Source: Patescibacteria group bacterium | GTDB lineage: Bacteria > Patescibacteriota > Patescibacteriia > UBA9934 | DNA length: 64,000 nucleotides | Assembly: GCA_018062825.1 (NCBI GenBank) | Contig: JAGORL010000004.1 | Coordinates: 7,409 to 71,408, forward strand | Direction: 5' to 3' | Part shown: positions 1-62,184 of the stretch, piece after piece | Layout: each line of letters opens with the position of its first letter | Position numbering within the stretch: the stretch's first letter is position 1 | Translations under genes and position numbers: made by a program | Notes under the pieces: generated by a model | Told to the model about the DNA's origin: nothing | Database searches by the model: none | The model's input: only the letters and a program-made list of their open reading frames with translations

Positions 1-762
1 ACTCATGCCAGGCGCATCGGGTCCATAACGGGTAAATAAACGCCGAACCTCATCGATGAGGCCCTCGGCAACCATTGCGTCAACACGCGCATTAATACGT
101 TCAAATAACTCTTCACGCTCAACCGCCACACCCAGTCTAAGCGCTTCATAACGAGGCGACTCCTCACGGCGTGCTGCCGCAAATGTTCCACCAGTCCCAA
201 TAATTACCTCAAGCGCCCGCTCCAGCCGCCGACGATTCTTAGCATCAATCACACTCGCGGCATCAGGATCACGTTTTGCGATCTCTTCAAGGAGCTCTTC
301 ATTTGATTGCATAGCCATAGCAGCCCGAAGTTCCGGGTTCGGCGGCACATGAGCAAGCGATACCCGGTCCAAAATCGCTGACAAATAAAAACCGGTTCCA
401 CCAACTAAAATCGGAACCTTGCCACGCTTAACGATGTCGGCAATCGTCTTATCTGCAAATGCCTGAAAATCTGCCGCACTAAACGCCTGATCAGGCGCTA
501 CCAGATCAAAACCCCAATGCACCACACCCTCAACAAGAAACGTAGGCGGACCAGCTAGTGCCGCCAAATTACCAGTCATAGCCGCAGTAATGCGATCACC
601 CTTAGGTTTTGCGGTGCCGATATCCATACCTTGATAAATGGTACGGGAATCACAAGCGATCACTTCCCCATCAACGGCACGAGCAATCGCAATACCAAGC
701 GCCGTTTTTCCGGACGCCGTGGCTCCAACAATGGCAATAATTCGTGGCAACGCTTGAGGCAT
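1..762 (-). CDS. miaA: tRNA dimethylallyltransferase MiaA (N-terminal 254 codons; rest lies beyond window start)
   Basis: Reverse complement of 1-762 reads from the ATG (complement of 760-762) as MPQALPRIIAIVGATASGKTALGIAIA. This contains the MiaA P-loop GATASGKT. The frame stays open to position 1. The listed 3..200 minus ORF is a different frame. Confidence 0.85.
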   Translation of the reverse strand, partial: MPQALPRIIAIVGATASGKTALGIAIARAVDGEVIACDSRTIYQGMDIGTAKPKGDRITAAMTGNLAALAGPPTFLVEGVVHWGFDLVAPDQAFSAADFQAFADKTIADIVKRGKVPILVGGTGFYLSAILDRVSLAHVPPNPELRAAMAMQSNEELLEEIAKRDPDAASVIDAKNRRRLERALEVIIGTGGTFAAARREESPRYEALRLGVAVEREELFERINARVDAMVAEGLIDEVRRLFTRYGPDAPGMS

Positions 763-815
763 ATACACAGGGCACTTTACCTGAAAACAATAAAAATCGG
801 TATCCTCAAGAGCAT

Positions 816-1667
816 ATGCGAAAAGAAGGAGCAATTCACAACTACGGCGCTGAGAATAAACCAGCCAGAAGACACATTGATCAAGATTTAATGAAAAGAG
901 CGCAAAATGACTTTAAAGAGCAAGGGATTTATAAGGCGAAAGACAGTCTAGAAAATGTAAGCAAGCGTCGCTTTGCAATTATCGCTGAGGTAAAAAAATC
1001 CCTTCCTGAATTAAAAAACTCCCAAGCAATCACTGCCTTTGATGAAGCATTGGAAAAGAATCCAAATGTTTGGAAGTCTTTTAGTGAAGCAAAAACTCAG
1101 GAAGATATAGATGCAATTGCAAGCGCGATCGTAGCGCAACTTGAACGCGAGATGCCGGTAAAGATGCCGGACATCAAGCAAGTTGGCGAAACTTCACCAG
1201 ACGAAGTGCTTGAAATGCCTGCAGATGAAGATGAACTCCAAGAATTAGACGAGGCGCAAATCGAAGAAATTCCTGAACCAGTCGCACAACCACAAAAAGC
1301 ACAAATCGCAACCGCCTACGGTGGCCACGTCGCCGAAGCAGCTATGCGCGGTGAGTCAATGGAATCTATCGCGCAACAAACAAGTCAAAATGTGGAACAG
1401 GTAAAGGGCGTAACAAATATTGATAGTAAAACCGTAAAACAGAAAACCCGTGAAAACGCAGTAAACATCGCTCGTGCAAAAATTGAAGCCGGCATGGATC
1501 CCGATGATCTGCAAGACTCCCTTGAGGGCGAACTTGAGGAACTAGAGGCGACAATTGAAGAATTAGAAGATGATGAACCGGTAACTCTAGATGCCGCCGT
1601 CACTAAAGCTGAAGCCGTACGAGCACAGCTCAAATGGCTTGCCGAACAAAAAGAAAGTGCCACTTAA
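816..1667 (+). CDS. acidic Glu/Lys/Ala-rich hypothetical protein (acidic protein 1); start uncertain (track gives 744, which would overlap the miaA start)
   Basis: Long ORF with backbone-like AT composition, strongly acidic and low-complexity (..EDELQELDEAQIEEIPEP.., ..EGELEELEATIEELEDDEP..). An in-frame ATG at 816 avoids the divergent overlap with miaA. No clear SD. Confidence 0.5.
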   Translation: MRKEGAIHNYGAENKPARRHIDQDLMKRAQNDFKEQGIYKAKDSLENVSKRRFAIIAEVKKSLPELKNSQAITAFDEALEKNPNVWKSFSEAKTQEDIDAIASAIVAQLEREMPVKMPDIKQVGETSPDEVLEMPADEDELQELDEAQIEEIPEPVAQPQKAQIATAYGGHVAEAAMRGESMESIAQQTSQNVEQVKGVTNIDSKTVKQKTRENAVNIARAKIEAGMDPDDLQDSLEGELEELEATIEELEDDEPVTLDAAVTKAEAVRAQLKWLAEQKESAT

Positions 1668-1673
1668 AGCAAC

Positions 1674-1711
1674 AATCCCGCCTCCCTATACAGGGGGCGG
1701 GATTTAGTTTT
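1674..1711. terminator. bidirectional intrinsic terminator between convergent genes
   Basis: Stem TCCCGCCTCCC / GGGGGCGGGA with a small loop, followed by TTTAGTTTT. It lies between the stop of acidic protein 1 (1667) and the stop of the minus-strand gene at 1712. Confidence 0.6.
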
Positions 1712-2293
1712 CTAGCGCCAGCCGACACGTTCGGCAAAGTCGCTAGAAAGGAACGAGACCTCGGGGAACTCAGTGCGTAGCTTGTCGAGGCGCTTTACAC
1801 GCTCGAGCTGCTTAGCGCCAAGGCACGTGAGTGCGAAGACCTCATTGAGGAGCAGGATGAACATCGCTACTCCCTCATCTGACTCGTCCTGACGCACCGG
1901 ACGCAAGATCGAGACGTAGGTGAAAATCTTGAACGTGACTGTGAGCCACGTATCAAAGCTCAGCTCCTGACGAATCACCTGCGGCGCCCAATCGTACGGG
2001 CGCGCGAGTCCATCACGCAGCTGCTCACCGGAGATGTCCGGCGCGCACAGGACGTCGAGCATCCTGCCAATCGCCTGGGCGTACCACAGCGCCATACGAT
2101 GATCCACATAGCGCTTGTTTGCCACGTGCTCACGTATACGAGCTAGGAAGAGCCCCTCGACTCCTGGCCACGGATGCAAGAGCATCCGGATCTGCCGTTC
2201 ACGCCCTAACTTCGGCGTGAACTTAGGGTCTGTCTTGTCCTCATCGGGCGGCACATCGTGCCGGCCGCCTGGAATCAGGTCGAACTTCAGCAT
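1712..2293 (-). CDS. hypothetical protein, high-GC gene A (likely horizontally acquired); ATG start at 2293 rather than the TTG-extended 2305
   Basis: 193-aa ORF whose GC is visibly higher than its flanks (runs such as cggcgcgcacaggacgtcgagcatcctgccaatcgcctgggcg). ATG at complement 2291-2293 is preceded by GGAGG (ttggaggctttcATG) and promoter module A. No family recognised. Confidence 0.6.
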   Translation of the reverse strand: MLKFDLIPGGRHDVPPDEDKTDPKFTPKLGRERQIRMLLHPWPGVEGLFLARIREHVANKRYVDHRMALWYAQAIGRMLDVLCAPDISGEQLRDGLARPYDWAPQVIRQELSFDTWLTVTFKIFTYVSILRPVRQDESDEGVAMFILLLNEVFALTCLGAKQLERVKRLDKLRTEFPEVSFLSSDFAERVGWR

Positions 2294-2317
2294 GAAAGCC
2301 TCCAATTTGGTTGGCTG

Positions 2318-2346
2318 ATATTAGCAGAAAAAAGCGTTTTTGTCAA
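2318..2346 (-). promoter_or_regulatory. sigma70-type promoter, module A: TTGACA-N17-TAATAT with T-rich spacer AAAACGCTTTTTTCTGC
   Basis: Minus-strand read: ttgacaaaaacgcttttttctgctaatatcagccaaccaaattggaggctttcATG. It is nearly identical to the modules upstream of the genes at 13900, 3923-4681 and 51500. Confidence 0.55.
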
Positions 2347-3872
2347 TGTCTGCTATAATAAAACTATCTATGACTGAACGACGCGGCACGCATCGCGAAA
2401 TTCCAGAACAGGAATCGCAAAAGAAAAATTACGCCTCATTTGTTGAGAGCCTCAATATCGGTCCAGGCGAAAAAGTATTACGCCTCGCAGATGATGGCAG
2501 TACCGATTCTTGGAACGTGGACACCATGGAGAATGACATGGTGTATCTTTCACGATCAGTATCAAATAAAGAAGAACCGGAGCGAGCAATGATGAAACTT
2601 GAGGAGTTAGCTCGCGAACAATACACACTAGAAACCAGTCAAAAGCTTCTCGAATCATGGCCAAAAATTGTCGAAAAGGCCCTTGAAAATACGCACCTAC
2701 CTGAGGAGAGAAAAAACATGCTCGCCCGACTTGAATCAGTAAAAAATGATTCCCTGGAAGGAGCAGCGTTAAATATCGTACTTAAAGAAATTGACCCAGA
2801 CAGCGAGACTGCTCGCAACCTTTTGCTTGATACAGTCGCTGCCGAAATCCAAAAAGATGTTGCCGATCTTATACAGGGCGAAGCTCGTGCTGAAGAGATT
2901 GTTAAAAAAGCCAAGCAGCCAAAAGTTACAAAACGTGGCGCCATTTCTGGATTAGCATTCGGTAAAGCAAAAGAACAAACAATCAGAAGCGAGGAAGTAA
3001 CCGAATCCCTGCCGGAAGATCCATCAATCGAGAAAACAACCGATATCAGCATTGATGAACCGGAGAAACCAGCCCTTGACCTTGAAACACGCCTCTCGCA
3101 AAAAGATGCTGCCTTTGCTGACTTTGTAACAAAAGCCAACATACGATCACGCAAATTCCATGATCGATCCCTACCACAACATGAATGGGATATCTTCACT
3201 AATGAAGCTCAAGAATCGATCAAGGAGTACTTAAAAATTGCCGGAGACAATCCATCAATTGCAGATGAAGAACGCCTATCGGTAATGCGCTCTCACCTTG
3301 AAGCGCTGAAGGAAAGAAAACTCATGGCAATCGCCGAGGTTGAATACACCCCGGACGCTGATGAAGTTCTAGAAACCCTAGCTCCAGTTGAGGCAAAAGA
3401 CGACGACCTCATGTGGTCAACGTTAGAAAACGACATGCACATGGTGGAGAATGAGATCGCCAGTCGCCAAGCTGCTGGCAAGCCGTTCTCCGCGGAAACA
3501 CTCAAAAAAGACCGAGAGCTTCTCAAGCGCGATCTTGATCTCTATACCAAGACCGCTCTCAAAGAACCAAATCCAGTCGCTGAGAAAAATATCGATCGCG
3601 CCATCGCATTTCTAGCCACCCTGGATATCCTTGCGCGAAAGGCCGAACTTACAGAAGAGCAAAGCATCGCCGAAGAACAAGACACCGATCTTGATGCTAC
3701 CCCGGTCATGGCTCCAAACCGAGAAGCAAGTGAACCAAGCTCTAAAAACAATGCAAAGAACACTAATGTGAACGCCGGCTCCAGCCTCATGAGTGAGGCT
3801 ATAAAATCCGGTTATAAACCAAAACCACCAGGCCAAGCCCTAATGGATTGGATAAAAAATATCTTTAGTTAA
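2340..3872 (+). CDS. acidic Glu/Lys-rich hypothetical protein (acidic protein 2); alternative start at 2370
   Basis: 510-aa ORF, AT-rich like the backbone and highly charged. A TATAAT hexamer lies at 2354-2359 just upstream of the in-frame ATG at 2370 (MTERRGTH..). It is divergent from gene A. Confidence 0.55.
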   Translation: MSMSAIIKLSMTERRGTHREIPEQESQKKNYASFVESLNIGPGEKVLRLADDGSTDSWNVDTMENDMVYLSRSVSNKEEPERAMMKLEELAREQYTLETSQKLLESWPKIVEKALENTHLPEERKNMLARLESVKNDSLEGAALNIVLKEIDPDSETARNLLLDTVAAEIQKDVADLIQGEARAEEIVKKAKQPKVTKRGAISGLAFGKAKEQTIRSEEVTESLPEDPSIEKTTDISIDEPEKPALDLETRLSQKDAAFADFVTKANIRSRKFHDRSLPQHEWDIFTNEAQESIKEYLKIAGDNPSIADEERLSVMRSHLEALKERKLMAIAEVEYTPDADEVLETLAPVEAKDDDLMWSTLENDMHMVENEIASRQAAGKPFSAETLKKDRELLKRDLDLYTKTALKEPNPVAEKNIDRAIAFLATLDILARKAELTEEQSIAEEQDTDLDATPVMAPNREASEPSSKNNAKNTNVNAGSSLMSEAIKSGYKPKPPGQALMDWIKNIFS

Positions 3873-3878
3873 AAGAAG

Positions 3879-3910
3879 AGGCCCACACGCGTTACGTGTG
3901 GGCCTTTGAG
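3879..3910 (-). terminator. GC-rich intrinsic terminator of high-GC gene B
   Basis: Perfect stem GGCCCACACG / CGTGTGGGCC with a 5-nt loop. On the minus strand it is followed by UCUUCUUUU. Its GC-rich composition suggests it travels with gene B. Confidence 0.5.
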
Positions 3911-3922
3911 TCACGGGTCACG

Positions 3923-4681
3923 TCAGCCGACACTCGGCGAACGACCCCACGTGTGCTCCGGGAAGCGATCGTAGTAACGCGTCATGAACGTGTACCAACA
4001 AGCATCGAGCGCGGTTGGCGTCGGACAGACGCACAGCATGCAGAAGAGCGGCACGACCGCGCTGATGGCGCGATAGCTCTTCGAGCCGCTGTCGATCCCG
4101 GCGAGGCTCGCCTTGTTGCGCAGAAGCGCCTGGAGATCGATCACGAACTGGTACCGATCCACAGTGACGACCCCAGGAGTTCCGAGGCGCCGGTGCTTGT
4201 CCTCCCGATCCCAGATCGTCATCGTCTCACAGACGATGGGCGTGATCTTGCGATCGCCACTCGCCTCGAGCGCTGCGTAGAACGCCATCGCGAGCTTCTC
4301 GTGCATGTCATGCACGATCGAGTGCGGCTCGCTGTCGCCATCGATGTTCAGCATCGCCGGATCGAAGAGCACGCTCTGCACGAGGCGTGCCATCGCGACC
4401 GCATTCTCGCCAAGAAGAGGGGTCACGATCTCCTTCGCGAACTTCGGGAAGTGCTGGAGAGCACCCCGGATCTCCTTCGGCCCTTCACGGACCAAAGGCT
4501 GCGTGCTTCCCCGTACCGCGGGAAGCTGCGAGCCCCTCGGCTTCGCGGACAGCTCGATGAGCTGTCCCCGGCCCGGATGATCCACCCTGGCCTTCACGAG
4601 GTGCAGAGGAACGTGCCGCTGCGGAAACGGCAATACGTTGTCGAGGCCATCGGCCTCATCTTGGCAACTGTCATTATTCAA
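3923..4681 (-). CDS. hypothetical protein, high-GC gene B (likely horizontally acquired), TTG start
   Basis: 252-aa balanced-composition ORF. The opposite-strand ORF 3896..4726 is Arg-rich antisense noise. The TTG start (complement of 4679-4681) lies 4 nt after AGGAGG. No in-frame ATG occurs until far downstream. No family recognised. A weak H-x3-HD (HSIVHD) motif is noted. Confidence 0.55.
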   Translation of the reverse strand: MNNDSCQDEADGLDNVLPFPQRHVPLHLVKARVDHPGRGQLIELSAKPRGSQLPAVRGSTQPLVREGPKEIRGALQHFPKFAKEIVTPLLGENAVAMARLVQSVLFDPAMLNIDGDSEPHSIVHDMHEKLAMAFYAALEASGDRKITPIVCETMTIWDREDKHRRLGTPGVVTVDRYQFVIDLQALLRNKASLAGIDSGSKSYRAISAVVPLFCMLCVCPTPTALDACWYTFMTRYYDRFPEHTWGRSPSVG

Positions 4682-4719
4682 GGTGCCTCCTTTGCCCCAT
4701 CACGGGGCACTCGTGGCGA

Positions 4720-4748
4720 ACAATAGCAAAAAAATGCAATTTTGTCAA
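4720..4748 (-). promoter_or_regulatory. sigma70-type promoter, module B: TTGACA-N17-TATTGT with spacer AAATTGCATTTTTTTGC, then a CCCC/GGGG hairpin in the 5'UTR
   Basis: Minus-strand read: ttgacaaaattgcatttttttgctattgttcgccacgagtgccccgtgatggggcaaaggaggcaccTTG. Confidence 0.5.
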
Positions 4749-4760
4749 TCAAAAACAGCC

Positions 4761-4838
4761 AATATTAGCGAAAAGCACAAATTAAATAGCAAATATTTGT
4801 TATCCACACAAGCCGCAAATATTAGCGAAAAAAGGCGT
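4761..4838 (-). repeat. two orphan partial copies of the promoter module (T-tract plus GCTAATATT -10 part, no good -35)
   Basis: Plus strand 4761-4775 aatattagcgaaaag and 4818-4838 aaatattagcgaaaaaaggcg. Their reverse complements, cttttcgctaatatt and cgccttttttcgctaatattt, match the TTTTTTCTGCTAATAT core of modules A and E. Confidence 0.45.
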
Positions 4839-4869
4839 AAAATAGAGACAGTATTCTTCAACGAAACCT

Positions 4870-6600
4870 ATGGTCATGAAAGGCGAAAGACGTTTTGATC
4901 CGATGGACGCACCGGACGTAAAAAGCACCCGTTGGTATCAAGAGAAAAATCTTGATGCAACCGTTGAAGATGTTGGCGATGAAGACCTTGATATCGAGGC
5001 TATTGCCGCTCGCAATGAAACACCAAACCTCAAAGCCCTGATGGCCGCTGATATTGATGCGAATATTCGCGCAGAGAATAAGGCCGAGCATGAAGAGCGC
5101 ATGCGAGTAAAATCTGAACAAAAAGCAGAAAAGCCGCTAACAGAAATCGAGATCAATCCTGATGCGCAAAATAACCCCGAAGCTGTTGTAGCAAAAGCAG
5201 AAGTATCAATGCTGCGTCGCGTATCCTCTGGCATGCGCGATGTCTTTGGCGTTGCTGCAAGCGCCTACGAAAGCCTTAAAAGCATCGGCACAATTGATAA
5301 CGGAGAGGGTAAAAAAATCGAGGTTGGAGCTCGTGCGAGCGTAACAGACATGAAACGCGGCGTTGCCGATTTCTTCGCCGACATGCGCACAACACTTTTT
5401 GGTGGCACAGAGAAACAAACAATCGACGTCCTTGAGCAAGATGAAACAACCGAGGGTTGGGAAGAAAAAGAAGGTGTTGTAGATAAGAAATACCCAGGAC
5501 TCCTTGAGGAATTAGTTTCCCGCCTGCCAGATGCACCAAAAACAATGAAGCGCGCCTTCTTAGCCGTTGCCGTTGATGTACCAGTTGGAATCTACGAGTC
5601 CTGGAAGCGCAATAAAGAGCTCAACGCCTCGCTAGAACAAATGCTCAAGGAAGAGCACGGTGAGGAATACACGCTCGACATGTGGCGCGCTAAAGAAGCT
5701 GATGATCAATTAGAATTCTCTCCTGACGCCATTCGCGCACGAAATGATGCTCAGGATGAACTGTACTACGACGGGATCATTGAAGCGCCTACCTTTAAGG
5801 AGGCGTTGAAGCAAGATGTCGTAACAATTGTAGGCGCTGGCTCTGAAGCCATGAAGAGCATGCATGTCGCTATTGGCCGTGCCGCAAAACACGCTTTCTA
5901 TGAAGAGCCGCTTGATCTTCTTCGTGGCTACGGCATGATCGCAGAATCCCTCGCAAGCGATGTAAAGCGTGGCGCGGAAGTAGCTAAAGGCAAAGGAAAA
6001 GAAATCGCGCAAGGCGCTACAAAGGCAGCTGAAAGTCTCAAGGTTGGTACAAAAGAACTGCAAACCAAAGCGGAAAAAGCATTCGGCAGCTTCAAAGAAA
6101 AAACCTGGGGCGCCAAAGCAAAACGAAATGAAATCATCCGAGAACGCAACGGAAGGCGCATTGCGGTCTACATTGAAAGCATGAAGTCAGAGGCTGAAGC
6201 AAGTGAACTAGCCAAAGATGAAGAAAGAGAAGCGGTGCCAATGAGCAGGAGCGACCGAGAAACAGTGATTGCAAAACGAGCCCTTCAGTTGAGTAAGCAA
6301 ATTACCGAACTAAAATCTGCTGTAGAGAAAGGTGAAACACACAAAAAACGCCTTCTTACCGCCCTAGAGCGCGTACAAAAAAACAACACGCTACGCGAGC
6401 AGACGCTCGAGGATATAAAACGAGCTATTGCAAGCGAAGCGGTTGATGTCGCAAAAAATAAAAATCGCATACTCGATCTTCAGCACCTATTAAACGCCTA
6501 CACCGAAAAGATAACTCCTATCGAGCTACCTGAGGCAGAGATAGATGAGGCAGATGAAGTGACTGATGAAATGCCACGCTCAACCGAAGAATCGGCCTAA
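4870..6600 (+). CDS. acidic Glu/Lys/Ala-rich hypothetical protein (acidic protein 3)
   Basis: 576-aa ORF with backbone composition. It is charged and coiled-coil-like, with no recognisable enzymatic motif. Confidence 0.55.
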   Translation: MVMKGERRFDPMDAPDVKSTRWYQEKNLDATVEDVGDEDLDIEAIAARNETPNLKALMAADIDANIRAENKAEHEERMRVKSEQKAEKPLTEIEINPDAQNNPEAVVAKAEVSMLRRVSSGMRDVFGVAASAYESLKSIGTIDNGEGKKIEVGARASVTDMKRGVADFFADMRTTLFGGTEKQTIDVLEQDETTEGWEEKEGVVDKKYPGLLEELVSRLPDAPKTMKRAFLAVAVDVPVGIYESWKRNKELNASLEQMLKEEHGEEYTLDMWRAKEADDQLEFSPDAIRARNDAQDELYYDGIIEAPTFKEALKQDVVTIVGAGSEAMKSMHVAIGRAAKHAFYEEPLDLLRGYGMIAESLASDVKRGAEVAKGKGKEIAQGATKAAESLKVGTKELQTKAEKAFGSFKEKTWGAKAKRNEIIRERNGRRIAVYIESMKSEAEASELAKDEEREAVPMSRSDRETVIAKRALQLSKQITELKSAVEKGETHKKRLLTALERVQKNNTLREQTLEDIKRAIASEAVDVAKNKNRILDLQHLLNAYTEKITPIELPEAEIDEADEVTDEMPRSTEESA

Positions 6601-6609
6601 ACCTCACCT

Positions 6610-6948
6610 ATGTCGCTTACCACAGACTTTGTTAACATCGTGGAACAATCAAGCATCCCTGAAGAAGTAAAAGCCGGAATCGTAAAGGAGGCAAAAAACA
6701 ATGGCGTATCTGCACAACTTGTTGATCTCTTCTTTGATGCTTTAAACATCATCGAACGCCAAGCATTAGAAGATGCCGGCATTGCACTTAATGCAAACGA
6801 TGCAGAACTCAAAGCAGGCCTCACTGAAGCTGATGAGCAAGCAAAAGTTGCAGCCAGCGATCTTGCCAAGGCTCTCAAGGAGATTGAAGGCGATGCAGAT
6901 TCGCTATTCAAGCAGGTTGGTGCAAAACTAAACGTTGCTACCGCCTAA
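6610..6948 (+). CDS. small acidic hypothetical protein (acidic protein 4)
   Basis: 112-aa ORF starting 10 nt after the previous stop. It is acidic and Ala-rich, and a terminator follows. Confidence 0.45.
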   Translation: MSLTTDFVNIVEQSSIPEEVKAGIVKEAKNNGVSAQLVDLFFDALNIIERQALEDAGIALNANDAELKAGLTEADEQAKVAASDLAKALKEIEGDADSLFKQVGAKLNVATA

Positions 6949-6954
6949 ACAAAA

Positions 6955-6990
6955 ATCCCGCCAGCAAATGTGGCGGGATTTTTGTTTTTA
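6955..6990. terminator. bidirectional intrinsic terminator (acidic protein 4 / thrS convergent)
   Basis: aaaaATCCCGCCAgcaaatgTGGCGGGATttttgttttt: 9-bp stem flanked by an A-run and a T-run. Confidence 0.65.
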
Positions 6991-8727
6991 CGCTTTTGGT
7001 AATTGAGAAGCGCTGACAGCTTGACTGATCAACTGATCAGCTGCAATCACCAGCGACTCCTCCTTGCCGTACACCTTCACTTGGAAATCACCCCCTTCAG
7101 CTTCCTTGGCGCCGATAACGATCGTCCACGGCACCTTCTGCATCGCAGCATCACGAATCTTCTTACCAACCTTCTCAGAGGCATCATCAAGCTTCACGCG
7201 AATACCCGCAGTGCGAAGTGAAGACACGATCTTTTGAGCAGCTGGAATGTAATCATCGGAAACAGTAGCAATGCGCACCTGCTCAGGCGCTAACCAAAAC
7301 GGAAACGCTCCCGCAAGATGCTCAATGATAACGGAAGTGAAGCGCTCAATAGAACCCATGATCGCACAGTGGATCATAAGAATTCCCTCCTTCTCACCCT
7401 TCTCATTCACACACTCCAAGCCAAAATTCTTTGGTTGATTAAAATCGAGCTGAATAGTCGCTACCTGATGCGTTCGACCAATGGCGTCGTTAGCCATAAA
7501 GTCGATCTTAGGGCCATAAAAAGCCGCTTCACCCGGTCCATCAACCCACTCCACACCCTTCTCGGTCAAAATATCGCGAAGCGCGGCCTCAGCCTTATCC
7601 CAGTCCTCCGGAGCGCCTAAGTACTTTTGCGGCTGTTCTGGGTCACGTAAAGACAATCGTGGCTTCAAAGAGAAACCAAAAGCGCCATAGAACGTCTGAA
7701 TGATTCCCCAAATAATTTCCGCCTCCTGACGCACCTGTGATACTCGGCAAAAAACGTGCGCATCATCTTGAGTGATAGAAAGCACGCGTGATAAACCGGA
7801 AAGCTCCCCAGACTGCTCATCTCGGTACACCATCGTTGTTTCCGCGTAACGTATTGGTAATTCACGATATGAGTGCTGCTCGCTCGCATAAATCTGCGCA
7901 TGGTGCGGACAGTTCATCGGTTTCATGGCAAATACATGGCCCTCACGTGTTTCGATCTTAAACAGATCTTCAGCATACTTTGCCCAGTGACCAGAAGTCT
8001 CATACAGATCCTTCTTGGTGATGTGCGGGATAGCTACTCGTTCATAGCCGTACGGTCTACGCAGCTCCCAAACAAACTGATTAAGCACTTCACGAATAAC
8101 GGTTCCCTTTGGAGTCCAAAGTGGTAAACCCGGACCAACAAGATCGGAAAAAACAAAGAGTCCGAGCTCTTTGCCAAGCTTGCGATGATCACGTCGCTTT
8201 GCTTCTTCAAGCATGGTCAAGTGAGCCTCAAGCTCCGTCTTTGTTTCAAAAGCTAAACCGTAAATACGAGTAAGTTGATCATTCTTCTCGTCACCGCGCC
8301 AATATGCGCCGGCCACCTTGGTGAGCTTAAACGAATCTGGATCAATGCCTGCCAAACCTTCACTATGACCACCTCGGCAAAGATCAACAAATTTTCCGGA
8401 AGTATACAAGGACAACGTCTGACCATCCTTAGCAAACTCATTAATAAGCTCAAGCTTGTACTTATTATCCGCAAAAACAGTACGCGCCTCATCCGCATGC
8501 ACCTCATTTCGCTCAAAAGCTTTAAATGTTGGTAAAAGCTTACGCATGCGCTTCTCAATCTTAGGAAGCGCATCTTCTGAAAGCGGTTCGGTAAAGTAAA
8601 AATCGTAATAAAAACCGTTTTCAATCGCAGGACCAATCGTGCGCTTAGCATCTGGATACAGCTCCAAAACTGCGGCCGCCAGAAGATGCGCCAATGAATG
8701 TCGACGGTGTTCAAGATCGTGGCTCAT
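6988..8727 (-). CDS. thrS: threonine--tRNA ligase, short form lacking the N-terminal TGS/N1 domain (ATG at 8727; track start 8850 is a GTG extension through the leader)
   Basis: MSHDLEHRRHSLAHLLAAAVLELYPDAKRTIGPAIENGFYYDFYF matches the N2/editing-domain start of ThrRS. The class II core and anticodon-binding domain follow. 580 aa. Confidence 0.9.
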   Translation of the reverse strand: MSHDLEHRRHSLAHLLAAAVLELYPDAKRTIGPAIENGFYYDFYFTEPLSEDALPKIEKRMRKLLPTFKAFERNEVHADEARTVFADNKYKLELINEFAKDGQTLSLYTSGKFVDLCRGGHSEGLAGIDPDSFKLTKVAGAYWRGDEKNDQLTRIYGLAFETKTELEAHLTMLEEAKRRDHRKLGKELGLFVFSDLVGPGLPLWTPKGTVIREVLNQFVWELRRPYGYERVAIPHITKKDLYETSGHWAKYAEDLFKIETREGHVFAMKPMNCPHHAQIYASEQHSYRELPIRYAETTMVYRDEQSGELSGLSRVLSITQDDAHVFCRVSQVRQEAEIIWGIIQTFYGAFGFSLKPRLSLRDPEQPQKYLGAPEDWDKAEAALRDILTEKGVEWVDGPGEAAFYGPKIDFMANDAIGRTHQVATIQLDFNQPKNFGLECVNEKGEKEGILMIHCAIMGSIERFTSVIIEHLAGAFPFWLAPEQVRIATVSDDYIPAAQKIVSSLRTAGIRVKLDDASEKVGKKIRDAAMQKVPWTIVIGAKEAEGGDFQVKVYGKEESLVIAADQLISQAVSASQLPKA

Positions 8728-8917
8728 ACAATGGAAATAAAAATAGCCGAATACCCCTCCATGGGGATTCGGCCGGGCTCCAAAACAACGTTCGGAGGGT
8801 TCCACCCGGGTTGTAATAGGGATGTCTCCCCTATCACCACTCAATGACACCTAATAAACAAGTAGGTGCGACCTGTTCGCTCCTGGGGCGGTACTCCCAT
8901 TCATCGCGAATATTTGT
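8728..8917 (-). promoter_or_regulatory. T-box-like leader RNA of thrS (stem III, antiterminator with UGGAACC bulge, intrinsic terminator)
   Basis: Minus-strand RNA: ..AUAGGGgagacaUCCCUAU uacaa CCCGGG UGGAACC CUCC gaacguuguuuu GGAG CCCGG ccgaaucccc.., giving helix A1, the 7-nt bulge UGGNACC and helix A2. Then comes hairpin GCCGAAUCCCC-AUGGA-GGGGUAUUCGGC followed by UAUUUUUAUUU, about 8 nt before the ATG. A Thr codon candidate ACC/ACU lies in GCACCUACUUG. Confidence 0.5.
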
Positions 8918-8945
8918 ACTATAGCTTAACGACAACCGTTGTCAA
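8918..8945 (-). promoter_or_regulatory. sigma70-type promoter of the thrS leader (TTGACA-N16-TATAGT)
   Basis: Minus-strand read ttgacaacggttgtcgttaagctatagt. The leader length to the ATG is about 190 nt. Confidence 0.5.
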
Positions 8946-9017
8946 AACATTGACAAAACAGCAAAAATGTGATATGATTCTTCTTGTACCCAAAAAATGT
9001 TATTAGGCTAACATTAA

Positions 9018-9048
9018 ACAAAAAATCGGCTTTTCAGCCGGTTTTTTG
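9018..9048 (-). terminator. intrinsic terminator after gene 9049-10227
   Basis: aaaaaaTCGGCTtttcAGCCGGttttttg. On the minus strand it reads CCGGCUgaaaAGCCGA followed by UUUUUU, immediately after the stop. Confidence 0.55.
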
Positions 9049-10227
9049 TTATTTTGCAGCCTCAATAGTAATGCGCACATGATCAGCTAAACTTGGCACG
9101 CGCTGTAGCCAAAATGGTGTAAAACTCACATGAACATCACTTACCGCTTCACTTGCTCTAAGAAGCGTTTCAACCTCTTTAGCGGAACGCCCCAAGAAAC
9201 GATCCTTAGCTACGATGGCAGCATCCTCAGAGAGTAAAGCGACGCCATCAAGGTACGCCTGCACACGAGCCGTCTTATTTGCCACACTAAATTCCAAGAC
9301 CTCCATTTGAAGCGCATCAAGCTGCTCATCAATGAGCTTAAAGCCATCAGGCAACTGCTCCTGAAGGCGCATGGTAGCCACGCTACCCACCGCTTCTTTA
9401 TCAAAGTACACCACAGCAACACGTGCACGCATGGTAAGCGTAAATGCGCCTGCCTCAGTACCAATCTGCGTATCAGTACCCTGTGAAAGAATCTCAATAT
9501 CAAAAGCCTCGCCCTCAAGACCAGCCCGATCAACATCAGCCTGTAACTGCGCCTTTGCCTCCGCAAGTAATTCAGTCTGCAAAGCGGAAGAAGCATCAGC
9601 GACATCAGATTCAGTAAGGGTACGCACATACTGCACACCTCCAACCATCGGCGCACTACTTACTCCAACAATAGACTGCTGAAGCGTGGGGTTAAGTCCA
9701 GGAATGGTAAATGTACCTGCCGGAATCTCGCCAGCCTTTCCCGCCTGATCTGCGATGGCATACGCCTCAACCTGACCATTAGCAGGAACGGTGACAAAGT
9801 CACGCAAGCGAAAAAGGACTCCTGTTTCAGAAAGTAAACGAGTAGTAGCCACAAGCGGTTGATCACCATTTGTGCCGTTAACAAGCGTCACGTAACCACC
9901 AGCCTTCTGCTCAACTGCCCGAGCGCCATCTGCCGGTAAAATAAAGAGTCGTGATCGATCAAGGGTAATCTCGTTTACAATACCTCGAATATCATTGGTG
10001 TCCTGAGGAGCTGCGACAACGTCAGCAAAGGCGTTCACCGAGATGGTCTTTGGTTCACTAATAACTTTAATCGTTGCCCTGGAAATAGAGAGGTAAACAA
10101 CACCTATCAAAAGCAAGAAAGCAACCGCCACGAAGCCCACAGCAATGCGTTGATACAAACGCAAAGAACGAGAAAGTGGTCTACTCCCCGCTTCAGACCG
10201 CGTGCGTACTGTCTTTACCATACGCAA
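9049..10227 (-). CDS. hypothetical membrane-anchored protein (single N-terminal TM, large extracytoplasmic domain), co-transcribed downstream of dnaE
   Basis: 392 aa. The hydrophobic segment IAVGFVAVAFLLLIGVVYLSI is followed by a long Ala/Thr/Gly/Val-rich domain. It lies 15 nt after the dnaE stop. Confidence 0.55.
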   Translation of the reverse strand: MRMVKTVRTRSEAGSRPLSRSLRLYQRIAVGFVAVAFLLLIGVVYLSISRATIKVISEPKTISVNAFADVVAAPQDTNDIRGIVNEITLDRSRLFILPADGARAVEQKAGGYVTLVNGTNGDQPLVATTRLLSETGVLFRLRDFVTVPANGQVEAYAIADQAGKAGEIPAGTFTIPGLNPTLQQSIVGVSSAPMVGGVQYVRTLTESDVADASSALQTELLAEAKAQLQADVDRAGLEGEAFDIEILSQGTDTQIGTEAGAFTLTMRARVAVVYFDKEAVGSVATMRLQEQLPDGFKLIDEQLDALQMEVLEFSVANKTARVQAYLDGVALLSEDAAIVAKDRFLGRSAKEVETLLRASEAVSDVHVSFTPFWLQRVPSLADHVRITIEAAK

Positions 10228-10242
10228 GTTAGTATAACACGC

Positions 10243-13200
10243 CTAAACCTTAACATTTCCCTCACCTACAAGACCGGTAACAAGCTTCATTAAAGCGTGA
10301 TTTGGCGAAACCGAATATTCCGTAGCAATCCGCTTACGCTCACCACCGGCAACAACCTCAAGATACACCCGCGTTTCTCCCTCGTGCGCTTTTAACGCGT
10401 CACGCAAGCGCATAATAAGATCATTAGACGGCGAGTCTGGAACAACAACCACAAACTGACGCTGAACGCTCGTCACAGGAACCGCTTCACGCTTCATGGG
10501 AGCGCCACGCCTCTCAAACGTTGGCGATCCCCCAGCACGCAGCGACTGCACAAGCATAGGGATCTGCTCTTCGGTAAACGCCGTCACTTCATCAACAAGC
10601 ACTGACCATTCCTTTGTAGAAGATTCTTCACGCTCCCGAATAGAAACCTTACCGGAAATAAGAACAAAGGTGTCTGGCAAAAGAATGTCACGCACCTTCT
10701 GATACGTCTTAGGAAAGACAACTGTCTCAAGTGATCCTGATGGATCATCAAGGCGCACAAACGCCATTGGTTCATTTTTTTTCTTAGTGTAAATCTGCTT
10801 AAAGTTAGAAATAATGCCACAGACACGTACCATATCGCCATCAGCCATCGCTAAAACCTCTTTCAACTTAGTAACAAACGGCGAAAGCGGCTCAGCAAAA
10901 AGTGCAGCAGGGTGCTCGGAAACATACATACCCAAAAGCTCCTTCTCCCAAGAAAGTTGGACGCTTTTTGAAAGCGGCTCAACGGCCCGCAACTCAAGAG
11001 ACTGGACCTGCATCTCGGGAGCAAACTGAAAAAGAGATGACTGATTACGTTCTTTCTCCTGCTGAGACTGCTTGTTGTACTGCACCATCTGATCCAAATT
11101 CCCCGCCATGGTGACACGATCACCAAATCGATCCAAAGCACCACACTTCACAAGCGCCTCAAGCGTCTTACGATTAAAGGCATGGCTCTTCACGCGTGAC
11201 AAAAGATCAGCCAAGTCCACAAATGGACCATGAGCCTTGCGTTCCTGCACGATAAATTCCGCAACCTCTTCACCAACATTCTTAATAGCTCGCAAACCCC
11301 AGCGAATATTGTTGGTATCTTTAACAACTGCAAATCCCGGGAATGATTCATTAACGTCCGGCTGCAAAACCTTCAAACCCATGCGATTACACTCCTCAAC
11401 CTCAATAGTGATGCGATCAATATTTCCGGCATCAGAATTCATGAGCGCCGCCATGAAACAAGCCGGATAATGCGCTTTAAGGTATGCCGTACGATACGCA
11501 ATGAGCGCATAACAGGCCGCGTGCGATTTATTAAAACCATACGCCGCAAAATCCTCCAACTTTTGGAAGATCTTAGTCGCCGTCGCTTCTGGAACATTAT
11601 TTTTAACCGCGCCCTCGATAAACTTAACCTTCATCTTGGCCATCAACTCCGCAATCTTCTTACCCATGGCTTTACGAAGTCCATCAGCTTCACCAGCCGT
11701 AAAGCCCGCCATGTCTTTAGAGACCTGCATCACCTGCTCCTGATACACCGGGATACCATATGTTTCCTTAAAGGCATTCTCCATGAGCGGATGCTCGTAC
11801 ACCACCTTCTCTAAACCGTGCTTACGACGAATAAAGCTCTCGATAAACTGCATCGGACCCGGACGATACAAAGACACCATGGCAATGATGTCTTCAAAAG
11901 CTGATGGTTGCAGCTCCTTGATGTAGCGCTTCATGCCGTCAGATTCAAGCTGGAATACACCAGTCGTCTCACCACGACCAAGGAGTGCAAACGACGGCTT
12001 GTCATCAAGTGGCAAGGTATTGATATCAACCTCTACTTTATGAACGGCTCGAATAATCTCAAGCGCATCCTCAATAATTGTTAAGTTAGAAAGTCCAAGA
12101 AAGTCCATCTTCACTAAACCCGCCGCTTCAGCGGAGTTAAGTGAATACTGGGTAACAAGCGCCATGTCTTCATGCTGGCCAGCCTGGAGCGGCACACGTT
12201 CAACAAGCGGCCTATCACCGATCACAATGCCACACGCGTGCTGCGAGGCATGACGCGGATTTCCCTCCATTTTCATGGCAAGCTCAATAACTCGGCGTAC
12301 CATGGCATCCGTGTCATACAGCTGCTTAAGTTCCGGCGCCTCTTCAATCGCTTTCTTCAAAGGTGTGTGCTTGCCCTGCACGGGCGGCGGAACCACCTTG
12401 GCAATCACATCAGCCTCCTGAAACGATAAGCCGAGAACACGCGCTGCATCTCGAACCGCAGCACGTGGCATGAGTGTTCCAAAGGTAATAATGCCCGCCA
12501 CGTGATCAGCGCCATACTTTTTTGTCACGTACTCCAAAACCTTTCCGCGACCACGGTCCGCAAAGTCTGTATCAATATCAGGCATCGAAACACGATCAGG
12601 GTTCAAGAAACGCTCAAAGAGGAGTCCATAACGAAGCGGATCAAGGTCCGTAATCTGTAACGCGTACGCAATAATGGAACCAGCCGCCGAACCACGACCA
12701 GGACCGACGAGAATGTCGTTCTTCTTGGCCCACGTAATGTAATCTTGAACGATTAAAAAGTAAGATGAAAAACCCATCTTAACAATCGTCGCAAACTCAA
12801 ACTCAAAACGCTCCATTACTTCAGGAGGGATCGGATCAGCATACCGCAACTTCAAACCTTCAATACACAACTCGTGCATGACATCGTTATCAGTCTTACC
12901 TTCAGGCAGCGGAAAATGCGGCAAGAAATTTTTGCCAAGTTCCATCTGAAAATCAACACGATCGGCAATTTTACGAGTATTCAAAAGCGCCTCAGGAAGA
13001 TGCGCGAAGCCATCGATTATCTCCTGAGGTTCACCAAAAGAAAGATCTACTTCGTCGGTATTTGTGCGGCGAAATTCTTCAAGCGTGCGACCACGCTGAA
13101 TACACATAGATGCCTCATACCCCTCCCTATCTTCCGGATCAAGATAGAAAACATTTTTTGTAGCAACAAGCTGGGCGCCAGTCTCTTTTGCTAGTTGCTC

Positions 13201-13779
13201 AAAGGCCGTATTCACTTCAACCTGACGCGGCATGTCCGGATGATGAATAAGCTCCAAGAAAAAGTTATCTTTACCAAAAATATCTTGATACTCACCAATG
13301 AGCGTTTTGGCCTTAGCAAGATCACCGTTAGCAGCTGCAGTGGCTATCTCTCCCCCAACCGCACCGGAAAGTGCAATAAGACCCTTAGCGTGATCACGCA
13401 AAAATTGCTTATCAACACGGGCTTTATAGTAAAAACCTTCTAAGTAGGCCGCGGTAACGATACGTGCCAAGTTTCGATATCCTTCATCGTTCTCAACAAT
13501 CAAAACCAAACGAAACGGTCGATCATCAACACGGGGTCGCTTATCTGTCATGCGGTATGGCGCCACGTAAATATCGCACCCAATAATCGGCTTAATCTCT
13601 GCATCCTTACAAGCCTTAAAAAACTCAACAGCGCCATACAAATTGGCGTTATCAGTAAGAGCAAGTGCCGTCATTCCTAAATCTTTAGCACGCGCAACAA
13701 GCGCCTTAGGCTTAGGAAGCGCCTCAAGGAGCGAGTAGTGGGAATGTGCATGGAGATAAACAAAATCCTTCGGATCCAT
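10243..13779 (-). CDS. dnaE: DNA polymerase III alpha subunit
   Basis: 1178 aa. N-terminal PHP domain YLHAHSHYSLLEA, then polymerase core and C-terminal OB-fold region. Confidence 0.95.
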   Translation of the reverse strand: MDPKDFVYLHAHSHYSLLEALPKPKALVARAKDLGMTALALTDNANLYGAVEFFKACKDAEIKPIIGCDIYVAPYRMTDKRPRVDDRPFRLVLIVENDEGYRNLARIVTAAYLEGFYYKARVDKQFLRDHAKGLIALSGAVGGEIATAAANGDLAKAKTLIGEYQDIFGKDNFFLELIHHPDMPRQVEVNTAFEQLAKETGAQLVATKNVFYLDPEDREGYEASMCIQRGRTLEEFRRTNTDEVDLSFGEPQEIIDGFAHLPEALLNTRKIADRVDFQMELGKNFLPHFPLPEGKTDNDVMHELCIEGLKLRYADPIPPEVMERFEFEFATIVKMGFSSYFLIVQDYITWAKKNDILVGPGRGSAAGSIIAYALQITDLDPLRYGLLFERFLNPDRVSMPDIDTDFADRGRGKVLEYVTKKYGADHVAGIITFGTLMPRAAVRDAARVLGLSFQEADVIAKVVPPPVQGKHTPLKKAIEEAPELKQLYDTDAMVRRVIELAMKMEGNPRHASQHACGIVIGDRPLVERVPLQAGQHEDMALVTQYSLNSAEAAGLVKMDFLGLSNLTIIEDALEIIRAVHKVEVDINTLPLDDKPSFALLGRGETTGVFQLESDGMKRYIKELQPSAFEDIIAMVSLYRPGPMQFIESFIRRKHGLEKVVYEHPLMENAFKETYGIPVYQEQVMQVSKDMAGFTAGEADGLRKAMGKKIAELMAKMKVKFIEGAVKNNVPEATATKIFQKLEDFAAYGFNKSHAACYALIAYRTAYLKAHYPACFMAALMNSDAGNIDRITIEVEECNRMGLKVLQPDVNESFPGFAVVKDTNNIRWGLRAIKNVGEEVAEFIVQERKAHGPFVDLADLLSRVKSHAFNRKTLEALVKCGALDRFGDRVTMAGNLDQMVQYNKQSQQEKERNQSSLFQFAPEMQVQSLELRAVEPLSKSVQLSWEKELLGMYVSEHPAALFAEPLSPFVTKLKEVLAMADGDMVRVCGIISNFKQIYTKKKNEPMAFVRLDDPSGSLETVVFPKTYQKVRDILLPDTFVLISGKVSIREREESSTKEWSVLVDEVTAFTEEQIPMLVQSLRAGGSPTFERRGAPMKREAVPVTSVQRQFVVVVPDSPSNDLIMRLRDALKAHEGETRVYLEVVAGGERKRIATEYSVSPNHALMKLVTGLVGEGNVKV

Positions 13780-13840: not shown

Positions 13841-13869
13841 TTTACCTTTCATAAAAGCTTTGCTAATAT
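13841..13869 (+). promoter_or_regulatory. promoter module C: weak -35 TTTACC, N17, TAATAT, then GCTAATATCCGCCAA...GGAGGCT UTR homologous to module A
   Basis: tttacctttcataaaagctttgctaatatccgccaagttcttcggaacatggaggctacATG, compared with module A ..ctgctaatatcagccaaccaaattggaggctttcATG. Confidence 0.45.
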
Positions 13870-13899
13870 CCGCCAAGTTCTTCGGAACATGGAGGCTAC

Positions 13900-14502
13900 A
13901 TGCTTAGGACCGTTCTCGTCGACCTCGATGACGTCGTCGCCGACTGGCGGGGACAGGTGATTCGAGACGCACAGAAGATCCTCGGGGACTCAAACGTGTT
14001 CATTCACGGACGAGACTACGAGGTCTGGGACATGATCAGTGAGTACCGCAAGGGATTCGGCGAGGAGGCGGTGCAGGCGATCCTGCAAGCAATCAATGCC
14101 CCCGGCTTCCACGAATCCCTGCCGCCGATCGAAGGAGCGATGGACGCACTGCAGCAACTCGATCACGACGGCTTCGACGCCTACATCGTCACCTGGCCGT
14201 GGCTTGGTCACCGGTCATGTGCCGGTGAGAAGCTCAACTGGGTTCGCGACAAGCTCGGCAGCTACTGGGAAAGGCGCACGATCATCAGCGCCAACAAGGT
14301 GCTCGTGCGCGGTGATCTGCTCATCGACGACCGACCAGATGCCGCGAAGCACGGCAACGGTCACGATCCGTCGTGGCAACACATCTTGTTCACGAACGAA
14401 GACTGGCCGTTCCGCCCGCACCTGAGCGACCACCCCGCCACGCACCGCATGCACGGCTGGGCAGAACTCCCCCGCATTCTGCAGGAACACAAACTCCTGT
14501 AG
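13900..14502 (+). CDS. 5'(3')-deoxyribonucleotidase-like HAD hydrolase (NT5C family), high-GC gene C (likely horizontally acquired)
   Basis: N-terminal HAD motif I VLVDLDDVVADW and NT5C-like length (200 aa). About 62% GC with GC-rich third positions (GTC/GAC/CTC/GCC codons). The overlapping ORFs in other frames are artefacts of the GC richness. Confidence 0.7.
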   Translation: MLRTVLVDLDDVVADWRGQVIRDAQKILGDSNVFIHGRDYEVWDMISEYRKGFGEEAVQAILQAINAPGFHESLPPIEGAMDALQQLDHDGFDAYIVTWPWLGHRSCAGEKLNWVRDKLGSYWERRTIISANKVLVRGDLLIDDRPDAAKHGNGHDPSWQHILFTNEDWPFRPHLSDHPATHRMHGWAELPRILQEHKLL

Positions 14503-62134: not shown

Positions 62135-62184
62135 ACTTCAGGAAAAGTATATCACGGATGATGGGTAATTTTGGTGTGCAAAAC

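Follow-up and report, generated by a model that had tools for sequence, protein, structure and literature searches.

A single gene can be preceded by tandem promoters, as in E. coli rrn P1/P2, where each promoter has its own -35 element. Fur and LexA boxes are AT-rich palindromic operators that overlap -10 elements, and the DnaA box is a 9-mer, TTWTNCACA, which occurs in clusters at the replication origin or singly in DnaA-regulated promoters. An UP element, the site of alpha-CTD, is an A/T-rich tract at about -40 to -60 of a sigma-70 promoter. To our knowledge, the promoters and regulators of Patescibacteria (CPR bacteria) have hardly been studied by experiment, and a literature search on promoter or start-site mapping in this group returned nothing relevant. 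For sigma-70 promoters, some initiation is reported to need no more than a T at -18 together with -11A and -7T, and polymerase is reported to bind in either orientation to -10 elements that are nearly symmetric (Warman et al. 2021, summarised in PMC10268837).

Here we analyse two short sequence elements, O1 and O2, in the intergenic spacer between two divergent genes, gene B and acid3, in a 64,000-nucleotide stretch of DNA (hereafter, the window) assigned to a Patescibacteria group bacterium. The original prediction, made from the sequence of this window, had drawn attention to both elements as orphan fragments of a promoter module. We compare them with the promoters of the window and with the same spacer in relatives, and weigh regulatory roles against an origin as remnants of gene insertion.

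The divergent spacer and its flanking genes

The window, taken from a contig of 84 kb, is a piece of bacterial chromosome with an overall GC content of about 48%, on which a domain scan identified ThrRS (6988-8850, minus strand) and DnaE (10243-13779, minus strand). Gene B (3923-4681, minus strand) is an orphan ORF of 251 amino acids with a GC content of 63%, a GC3 of 0.79 and a ribosome-binding site, GGAGG. The way in which substitutions are spread over the codon positions confirms that the minus strand is the coding one: identity between gene B and its orthologue is 0.59, 0.68 and 0.52 at codon positions 1, 2 and 3, respectively, and the same comparison for gene A gives 0.77, 0.80 and 0.48. 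In searches of 5.8 billion clusters, and of 1.84 billion representatives with full HMMER, the sole relative of gene B was its own strain variant, at 95-96% identity. The gene B protein has no Pfam or NCBIfam match, and its AF2 model has a mean pLDDT of 44.8 (i.e., about 45), a low-confidence model that is unusable. The divergent partner of gene B, 'acidic protein 3' (acid3; 4870-6600, plus strand), encodes 576 amino acids, and its product is identical to the NCBI hypothetical protein KBC55_04110 from 'Patescibacteria group bacterium'.

With gene B starting at 4681 and acid3 at 4870, the divergent spacer covers positions 4682-4869, or 188 nt. The figure of 190 nt originally proposed for the distance between the gene B promoter and acid3 therefore has to be corrected, because the promoter (4720-4748) lies 121 nt from acid3; it is the whole spacer between the two genes that measures 188 nt.

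Five genes in the window are GC3-rich (GC3 of 0.64-0.90 vs. 0.44-0.47 elsewhere), and each is preceded by one of five promoters, here designated A-E. A search with Pfam and NCBIfam revealed no DNA-binding domain in the proteins of genes B, A and acid1-3 or in that of the small ORF. No integrase or transposase domain was detected among the 17 window ORFs scanned, and positions 1-12000 of the window had no match in a phage database by megablast.

Two copies of a 14-nt element

The window contains two exact copies of the 14-mer AATATTAGCGAAAA (TTTTCGCTAATATT on the minus strand), O1 at 4761-4774 and O2 at 4818-4831, with a spacing of 57 nt. No further copy was found in the window, even when two mismatches were allowed. 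Exact direct repeats of at least 14 nt appeared in 0.3% of first-order Markov simulations of a 203-nt sequence of the same composition, and a chance origin of the repeat was rejected. The two copies correspond to the fragments of the original prediction. The first, at 4761-4775 on the minus strand, reads CTTTTCGCTAATATT as described there; the second, cgccttttttcgctaatattt, was also given with the right sequence, but its coordinates are 4817-4837 rather than 4818-4838, a shift of one base.

Read on the minus strand, each copy is made up of a T-run, CGC and the -10-like hexamer TAATAT, which is located at 4767-4762 in O1 and at 4824-4819 in O2. Each copy is also associated with a palindrome, GCCAATATTAGC for O1 (12 bp, 4758-4769), the centre of which is about 50 nt upstream of the inferred start of the gene B promoter, and GCAAATATTAGC for O2 (4815-4826). 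Both palindromes fit the pattern GCnAATATTnGC without mismatch, in the window and in the related species described below (L003), and their arms are short, at 2 bp. No longer tandem duplication of 57 nt underlies the repeat: outside the 14-mer, an ungapped alignment matches at about 26%, and there is no similarity past a core of 14-19 nt.

Scattering of the same motif through intergenic DNA would have counted against the original prediction. We found instead that the 14-mer is unique to the spacer and that, elsewhere in intergenic DNA, the shorter core occurs only as the -10 of real promoters.

Conservation in related genomes

Three independent contigs with this locus were obtained from Logan assemblies (L001, L002 and L003). 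The organism itself is present in run SRR11088486, and relatives of it are in SRR25896850 and SRR17347193. L001 is identical to the window. L002 represents a strain in which gene B is 95% identical at the protein level; its arrangement matches that of the window as far as the contig extends, and its spacer has two differences, both outside O1 and O2. L003, 13.5 kb long, derives from a related species and is syntenic with the window, having the same gene order: acid1 (+), A (-), acid2 (+), B (-), acid3 (+), a small ORF (+) and ThrRS (-). In L003, genes A and B are equally GC-rich, and no cassette is extra or missing. Given their presence in three independent assemblies, O1 and O2 are not an assembly artefact.

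Protein identity between the window and L003 is 94% for ThrRS, 61-68% for the acidic proteins, 65% for A and 49% for B, and four-fold degenerate sites are 38-54% identical, i.e., essentially saturated. The spacer between B and acid3 is 86% identical (175 of 203 positions) and contains no indels. Within it, 27 of the 28 bases of O1 and O2 are kept, at the same positions and with the same 57-nt spacing; the lone change, G4770C in O1, falls just outside the palindrome, and O2 is unchanged. The longest substitution-free run is 39 nt (the B leader and ribosome-binding site), followed by runs of 37 nt (4814-4850), 17 nt (4795-4811, the block around TTATCCACA) and 13 nt (4757-4769, the O1 palindrome). 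The most variable part of the spacer, 4778-4794, lies between O1 and the TTATCCACA block. Relative to their surroundings within the spacer, the two 14-mers are marginally better conserved (permutation P = 0.056), in a conservation comparison that draws on two informative relatives only.

Because O1 and O2 are kept at 27 of 28 positions and at fixed spacing despite saturated four-fold sites, they appear to be cis-regulatory sites under strong purifying selection. We consider it very probable that they have a regulatory function and are not relics. With synonymous sites saturated between the two species, the common ancestor of both would already have had the fragments as well as the GC-rich genes.

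The lineage is rare, being absent from GTDB representatives and JGI metagenomes. A scan of GTDB genomes with acid3 yielded no relatives, and a scan with ThrRS gave 80 loci, the best at no more than 64% identity, none of which contains the 14-mer, so that they were of no use for footprinting. A scan of JGI metagenomes with an alignment of acid3 also yielded no relatives. Searching with the small-ORF protein produced one more relative, at 79% identity, on a 1161-bp contig too short to include the spacer. The single JGI metagenome match to the 20-mer AATATTAGCGAAAAAAGGCG (L084) occurs in an unrelated context and was judged to be due to chance. As a separate observation, a gene next to this match appears by eye to encode a Crp/Fnr-type regulator and has a TGTGA-N6-TCACA site.

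Likeness to the promoter cores of the GC-rich genes

Promoter A (2346-2318, minus strand) and promoter E (51355-51383, plus strand) both consist of TTGACA, a 17-nt spacer and TAnnnT with a TG extension. The gene B promoter (4720-4748, minus strand), identified by a promoter scan and a regex search, has TTGACA, 17 nt, TATTGT, a TG extension and a T7 run, with an inferred start at about 4713. Promoters A, B and E are mutually 78-93% identical across 28-36 nt and have in common the hexamer TA(A/T)T(A/G)T at -10 and a run of six or seven T. The two others, promoter C (13853-13874, plus strand) and promoter D (51199-51178, minus strand), read TTTGCTAATAT and TTTGCTAATCT, respectively.

A 22-nt weight matrix trained on the cores of the five module promoters (A-E) was used to score about 128,000 positions in the window. 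Among all positions outside the training set, O2 ranked first, with 18.4 bits and an equal score in L003; its wider match to the module core, CCTTTTTTCGCTAATATTTGCG, extends over 4835-4814 on the minus strand. O1 is weaker, with 10.0 bits and rank 13 overall. The claim that the fragments reproduce the module core is therefore borne out. The shorter sequence GCTAATAT occurs five times in the window (1.3 expected), namely in two of the promoters (A and C), in each of O1 and O2 and once within coding sequence, and 12 of the 14 repeated positions equal the consensus of the promoter core (T-run, GC and TAATAT). As TAATAT on the minus strand, both O1 and O2 contain the sigma-70 -10 hexamer TAnnnT with -11A and -7T. 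They have the same orientation as the gene B promoter, and both are upstream of it.

Two components of a strong promoter are missing from both copies. There is no -35 hexamer at 16-18 nt: O2 reads CTCTAT, TCTATT or TCTCTA at this position and O1 reads GCTATT or TGCTAT, with at most two of six matches, and in O1 the position falls in the segment of the spacer that varies most relative to L003. Nor does either copy have an ORF of its own before the gene B promoter, so that this part of the original description stands as well. The promoter scan reported the gene B promoter alone in the spacer. The TG extension at -15/-14 is also absent from O1 and O2, in which TAATAT is preceded by CGC (GGC for O1 in L003). 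TGC is present at the corresponding place in promoters A, B, C, D and E, in the acid2 promoter and in the promoter of the gene at 25466. Candidate -35-less promoters elsewhere in the window, those of acid2 (TGCTATAAT), promoter D (TGCTAATCT) and the gene at 25466 (TGCTAAAAT), all carry TG. Promoters of the -35-less kind thus seem to be in use in this genome.

A similar -35-less core with a score of 14.1 bits, at 9027-9006 on the minus strand, is upstream of the canonical promoter of ThrRS and has been kept in L003; it is possibly a second example of such a copy. Read by eye, GC follows two bases after the -10 in six of seven module or orphan cores vs. none of five other promoter candidates.

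Other elements of the spacer

The 37-nt block without substitutions relative to L003 (4814-4850; CGCAAATATTAGCGAAAAAAGGCGTAAAATAGAGACA) has the size of a core promoter and holds both O2 and, on the plus strand, TAAAAT (4838-4843). This hexamer, read from the sequence and conserved in L003, is a candidate -10 of the acid3 promoter (P1), with an inferred start at about 4850. Relative to P1, O2 is located at about -33 to -20, in the -35/spacer region, and an A6 tract is located at -17 to -22. An alternative candidate -10 of acid3 (P2) is TATTCT (4852-4857, plus strand; TATTAT in L003), which ends 12 nt before the ATG. Use of P2 would give a near-leaderless acid3 mRNA, comparable to the arrangement at acid2, where TGCTATAAT is followed after 10 nt by the ATG at 2370.

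Between O1 and O2 there is a further conserved block (4796-4812, plus strand; TTTGTTATCCACACAAG), within which TTATCCACA (4800-4808) is the only perfect DnaA-box consensus in the window and is conserved in L003. The block is identical at 11 of 13 positions to TTTTCCACACCAG, which is located directly upstream of the promoter E -35 (51341-51353). A replication origin at the spacer was considered and rejected, there being a single DnaA box, no cluster and no skew inversion. With respect to the gene B promoter, O1 occupies about -48 to -61, 12 nt from the -35, and is A/T at 10 of 14 positions but includes GCG; O2, at -105 to -118, is too far away for an UP element.

Taken as a whole, the spacer would be a compact, phylogenetically footprinted control region with two full promoters, two -35-less cores and a DnaA-box-like block. 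This divergent control region was overlooked in the original prediction, and judging from its layout O1 and O2 probably serve both genes.

Possible functions of O1 and O2

Our best explanation, which we put forward tentatively, is that O1 and O2 may be low-affinity docking sites for RNA polymerase. The core used by the GC-rich genes comprises a T-tract over -18, GC, a TAATAT -10 and GC two bases downstream, and O1 and O2 would be copies of this core minus the strong recruiters, the -35 hexamer and the TG extension. The polymerase holoenzyme would dock weakly at them, within a compact control region that works in both directions. On the minus strand, they could serve as additional promoters in tandem, weak or conditional, that feed gene B from starts expected at about 4755 and 4812. 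When occupied, they would compete with both main promoters: a polymerase footprint at O2 would overlap the acid3 promoter (TAAAAT, 4838-4843), and one at O1 would overlap -40 to -60 of the gene B promoter. Such competition could couple or balance the expression of B and acid3. We infer polymerase binding, start sites and competition from sequence features, among them a T-run that covers -18 and an AATATT core that is self-complementary in both copies. Weak docking would explain why four sub-elements of the core are copied in O1 and O2 and why their orientation is that of the gene B promoter; the identity of O1 and O2 would follow because 12 of 14 positions are core consensus. Its main weakness is that both copies lack TG and a -35, and that this lack is itself conserved, so they may be transcriptionally silent. 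In addition, the two 14-mers are only marginally better conserved than the rest of the spacer, and a dimeric regulator would account at least equally well for a palindrome that has no mismatch in either copy or either species.

A dimeric transcription factor with the 12-bp palindromes GCnAATATTnGC as its operators is the main rival, a close one that we regard as somewhat less likely. At O2, such a regulator would cover the -35/spacer region of acid3; at O1, its place would be just upstream of the gene B promoter -35. The same protein could bind, with one mismatch, the -10 of promoters A, C and D, thereby co-regulating the GC-rich genes. The palindrome is perfect at O1 and O2 in the window and in L003, with the change at 4770 in O1 falling outside it, but the arms are only 2 bp and an AATATT centre is self-complementary by nature. 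In the window, GCNAATATTNGC with at most one mismatch is found 13 times vs. 2.5 expected, a five-fold excess, and 7 of these 13 near-matches are intergenic (intergenic DNA being 2.8 kb, or 4.3% of the window), including the -10 of promoters A, C and D; this enrichment, however, is confounded with the promoter -10 consensus TGCTAATAT. The palindrome at 5059-5070, inside the acid3 gene, has no conserved counterpart in L003. The fixed, indel-free spacing of 57 nt is typical of operator architecture, the sites overlap or abut core promoter elements and are colinear in L003, the conserved lack of TG and -35 suggests that selection is not on promoter strength, and the GC two bases after the -10 is confined to module and orphan cores (six of seven, vs. 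none of five others). Against this, the conserved T-run is one-sided and would be left unexplained by a symmetric dimer, and no regulator was found nearby, the B, A, acid1-3 and small-ORF proteins having no Pfam or NCBIfam match. Weak promoters in tandem and operator sites, in either case directed at gene B, had both been named in the original prediction, and this part of it agrees with all of our findings, since weak polymerase docking and operator binding are the best explanation and its main rival.

The two copies could instead be parts of the full promoters, O2 supplying the -35/spacer portion for acid3 and O1 acting as an UP-like element for gene B, with their identity due to common descent. 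In favour of such a division of roles, which we consider unlikely, O2 belongs to the 37-nt invariant block, which ends at the expected start, 7 nt past TAAAAT; a strong promoter at 8950, which has no ORF, carries an A5 tract in the corresponding part of its spacer; the order of TTTTCCACACCAG and the promoter E -35 parallels that of TTATCCACACAAG and O2; and O1 is, by computed position, where a classical UP element of the gene B promoter would be. Yet the putative -35 position of acid3 reads CGCAAA or GCAAAT, with at most two of six matches, no conserved plus-strand -10 follows O1 (4778-4794 being the most variable segment), and neither the 14/14 identity of two differently employed elements nor the mimicry of the core by both copies, down to the downstream GC, is explained. 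The original prediction had also suggested scars of repeated insertion, duplication or gene capture, that is, neutral and decaying remnants of promoter-plus-gene modules with no present function. The similarity to the module core on which that suggestion was built is real according to the weight matrix, and by eye O2 plus TAAAAT can be aligned to promoter A or the acid2 unit if a 16-nt -35 segment is taken as deleted. Neutral remnants nevertheless appear extremely improbable given that L003, despite near-saturated four-fold sites, matches at 27 of the 28 positions and has exactly the same spacing. Comparison of the orthologous locus, a check proposed with the prediction itself, showed the same genes in the same order in L003, with A and B likewise GC-rich, and no cassette turnover. 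Furthermore, neither A and B nor acid1, acid2 and acid3 have detectable paralogy, leaving no sign of unit duplication, and the repeat is not extended into a 57-nt tandem duplication (about 26% beyond the 14-mer). The main support for reading the fragments as traces of cassette capture is thereby removed, and an ancient duplication of the promoter core is a possible origin of O1 and O2. Hardly credible, finally, is a structured or small RNA encoded by the spacer in which O1 pairs with O2. The two are paired in the minimum-free-energy folds of both strands, which follows from each being palindromic, but the folds are not significant (z-scores of -1.8 and -1.4), G4770C in L003 breaks a predicted pair without a compensating change, no Rfam match was obtained even at E up to 1, and a scan found no terminator.

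O1 and O2 would be cis-regulatory DNA of an ordinary kind. Of greater interest is why five GC3-rich genes should have one promoter type in common. A far-reaching reading, which we think very unlikely, is that the core (T-run, GCTAATAT, two bases and GC) is a lineage-specific code that marks a small regulon of compositionally foreign, GC3-rich genes, A-E, in a reduced Patescibacteria genome, with O1 and O2 as conserved, cargo-less titrators or landing pads. If true, the locus would be a gene-capture platform that supplies promoters and not an ordinary divergent promoter, and O1 and O2 would titrate polymerase or a dedicated regulator, or give newly acquired genes their expression signals.

Comparison with known systems

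The likeness to integron attC/attI sites is limited to the shared idea of short repeats beside compositionally foreign genes with their own expression signals. Unlike in integrons, there is no cassette turnover between relatives and the sites are conserved; where attC is an imperfect hairpin, O1 and O2 are a promoter core, and no integrase domain is present in the neighbours scanned. O1 and O2 miss two features of canonical promoters, the -35 and TG, as well as both expectations for a cassette footprint, neutral decay and turnover of content.

As with Fur or LexA boxes, an inverted repeat (12 bp) occurs twice in a divergent region, once in O1 and once in O2, with position and spacing conserved, and similar sequences lie over the -10 of other promoters in the window. 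O1 and O2 differ from such boxes in having arms of 2 bp and a one-sided T-run, and no cognate regulator was found in the neighbours. No match was obtained to the named operator consensuses tested, and the DnaA box is a separate, neighbouring element. The arrangement also recalls tandem promoters of the rrn P1/P2 kind, in that several cores facing the same way occur within about 100 nt of one gene, with GC after the -10; unlike at rrn P1/P2, the gene-proximal promoter alone is complete.

A further parallel is with the -35-less sigma-70 promoters, both those with an extended -10 and the -18T, near-symmetric bidirectional ones (Warman et al. 2021, summarised in PMC10268837). O1 and O2 differ from these in having no TG at -15/-14 and, on the plus strand, an AATATT without -12T. 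They share with these promoters a TAATAT hexamer with -11A and -7T, a -18T within a T-tract, the reciprocal -11A/-7T provided by AATATT and a location in a divergent intergenic site. O1 and O2 would thus represent a known kind of element in an unstudied lineage.

Shared features of the GC3-rich genes

The five GC-rich genes A-E (1712-2293, minus strand; 3923-4681, minus strand; 13900-14502, plus strand; 49253-50884, minus strand; and 51500-52246, plus strand) have GC3 values of 0.64-0.90, compared with 0.44-0.47 in the genes for ThrRS, DnaE and the acidic protein acid3. All five share a promoter composed of a T-run and a TGCTAAT-type element, and their products comprise two orphans, an NT5C nucleotidase, an M23 peptidase and a lipoprotein-like protein. 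In L003, a syntenic 13.5-kb contig from a related species, genes A and B are syntenic and equally GC-rich despite saturation of synonymous sites between the two sequences. Thus, the unusual composition of A and B is maintained and does not reflect recent import.

The Logan gene call on L001, a contig identical to the window, places a 276-aa plus-strand ORF over gene B (3896-4726). This ORF is disfavoured: the codon-position substitution pattern, promoter, ribosome-binding site and terminator all favour the minus-strand ORF, i.e., gene B.

Translation starts of the acidic-protein genes

At least genes A, B, C and E carry a GGAGG ribosome-binding site, whereas none of the three acidic-protein genes has a Shine-Dalgarno sequence. 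Instead, each of the three has a TAnnnT hexamer ending 9-12 nt ahead of the ATG (hexamer/ATG regions at 2354-2372 and 4852-4872 in the window and at 1033-1053 in L003). Together, the hexamer position and the missing Shine-Dalgarno sequence suggest that the acidic-protein mRNAs are near-leaderless.

Candidate regulatory elements and RNAs

A third core-like element without a -35 (GATTTTTTGTTTAATGTTAGCC, 9006-9027, minus strand) scores 14.1 bits against the 22-nt weight matrix built from promoter cores A-E and has TAATAT in L003. It precedes the canonical ThrRS promoter (8945-8918, minus strand), ~60 nt upstream of that promoter's -35. Gene B shows this arrangement too, with a crippled core ahead of a complete promoter. 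Between the window and L003, the ThrRS 5' leader (8851-8917, minus strand) shows ~95% identity, far higher than neutral, and it had no match in Rfam; it is possibly an uncharacterised regulatory leader of thrS.

On the plus strand, a near-consensus promoter (8950-8978; TTGACA, 17 nt, GATATGAT) has no ORF downstream and is followed ~65 nt later by a bidirectional terminator (~9020-9048). The region 8950-9048 is conserved in L003, its sole Rfam match is a weak, sub-threshold hit to IS128 (E = 0.13), and this promoter-to-terminator unit could encode a small RNA. A ~290-nt GC-rich leader (50885-51178, minus strand) separates promoter D from the M23 peptidase gene start; Rfam gave no match, and the leader could act as a structured regulatory RNA.

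Five copies of the DnaA-box-like motif TTWTNCACA are present in the window, the number expected by chance; four of the five sites are intergenic, and intergenic DNA makes up 4.3% of the window. DnaA-box-like sites lie at 51254-51262 and 62175-62183 (both minus strand), at 4800-4812 and at 51341-51353. TTATCCACACAAG (4800-4812) is kept in L003 and is located between O1 and O2, the two promoter-core copies without a -35 in the B-acid3 spacer. TTTTCCACACCAG (51341-51353), immediately upstream of the promoter E -35, matches it at 11 of 13 positions, and the pair may represent a common activator site or DnaA site.
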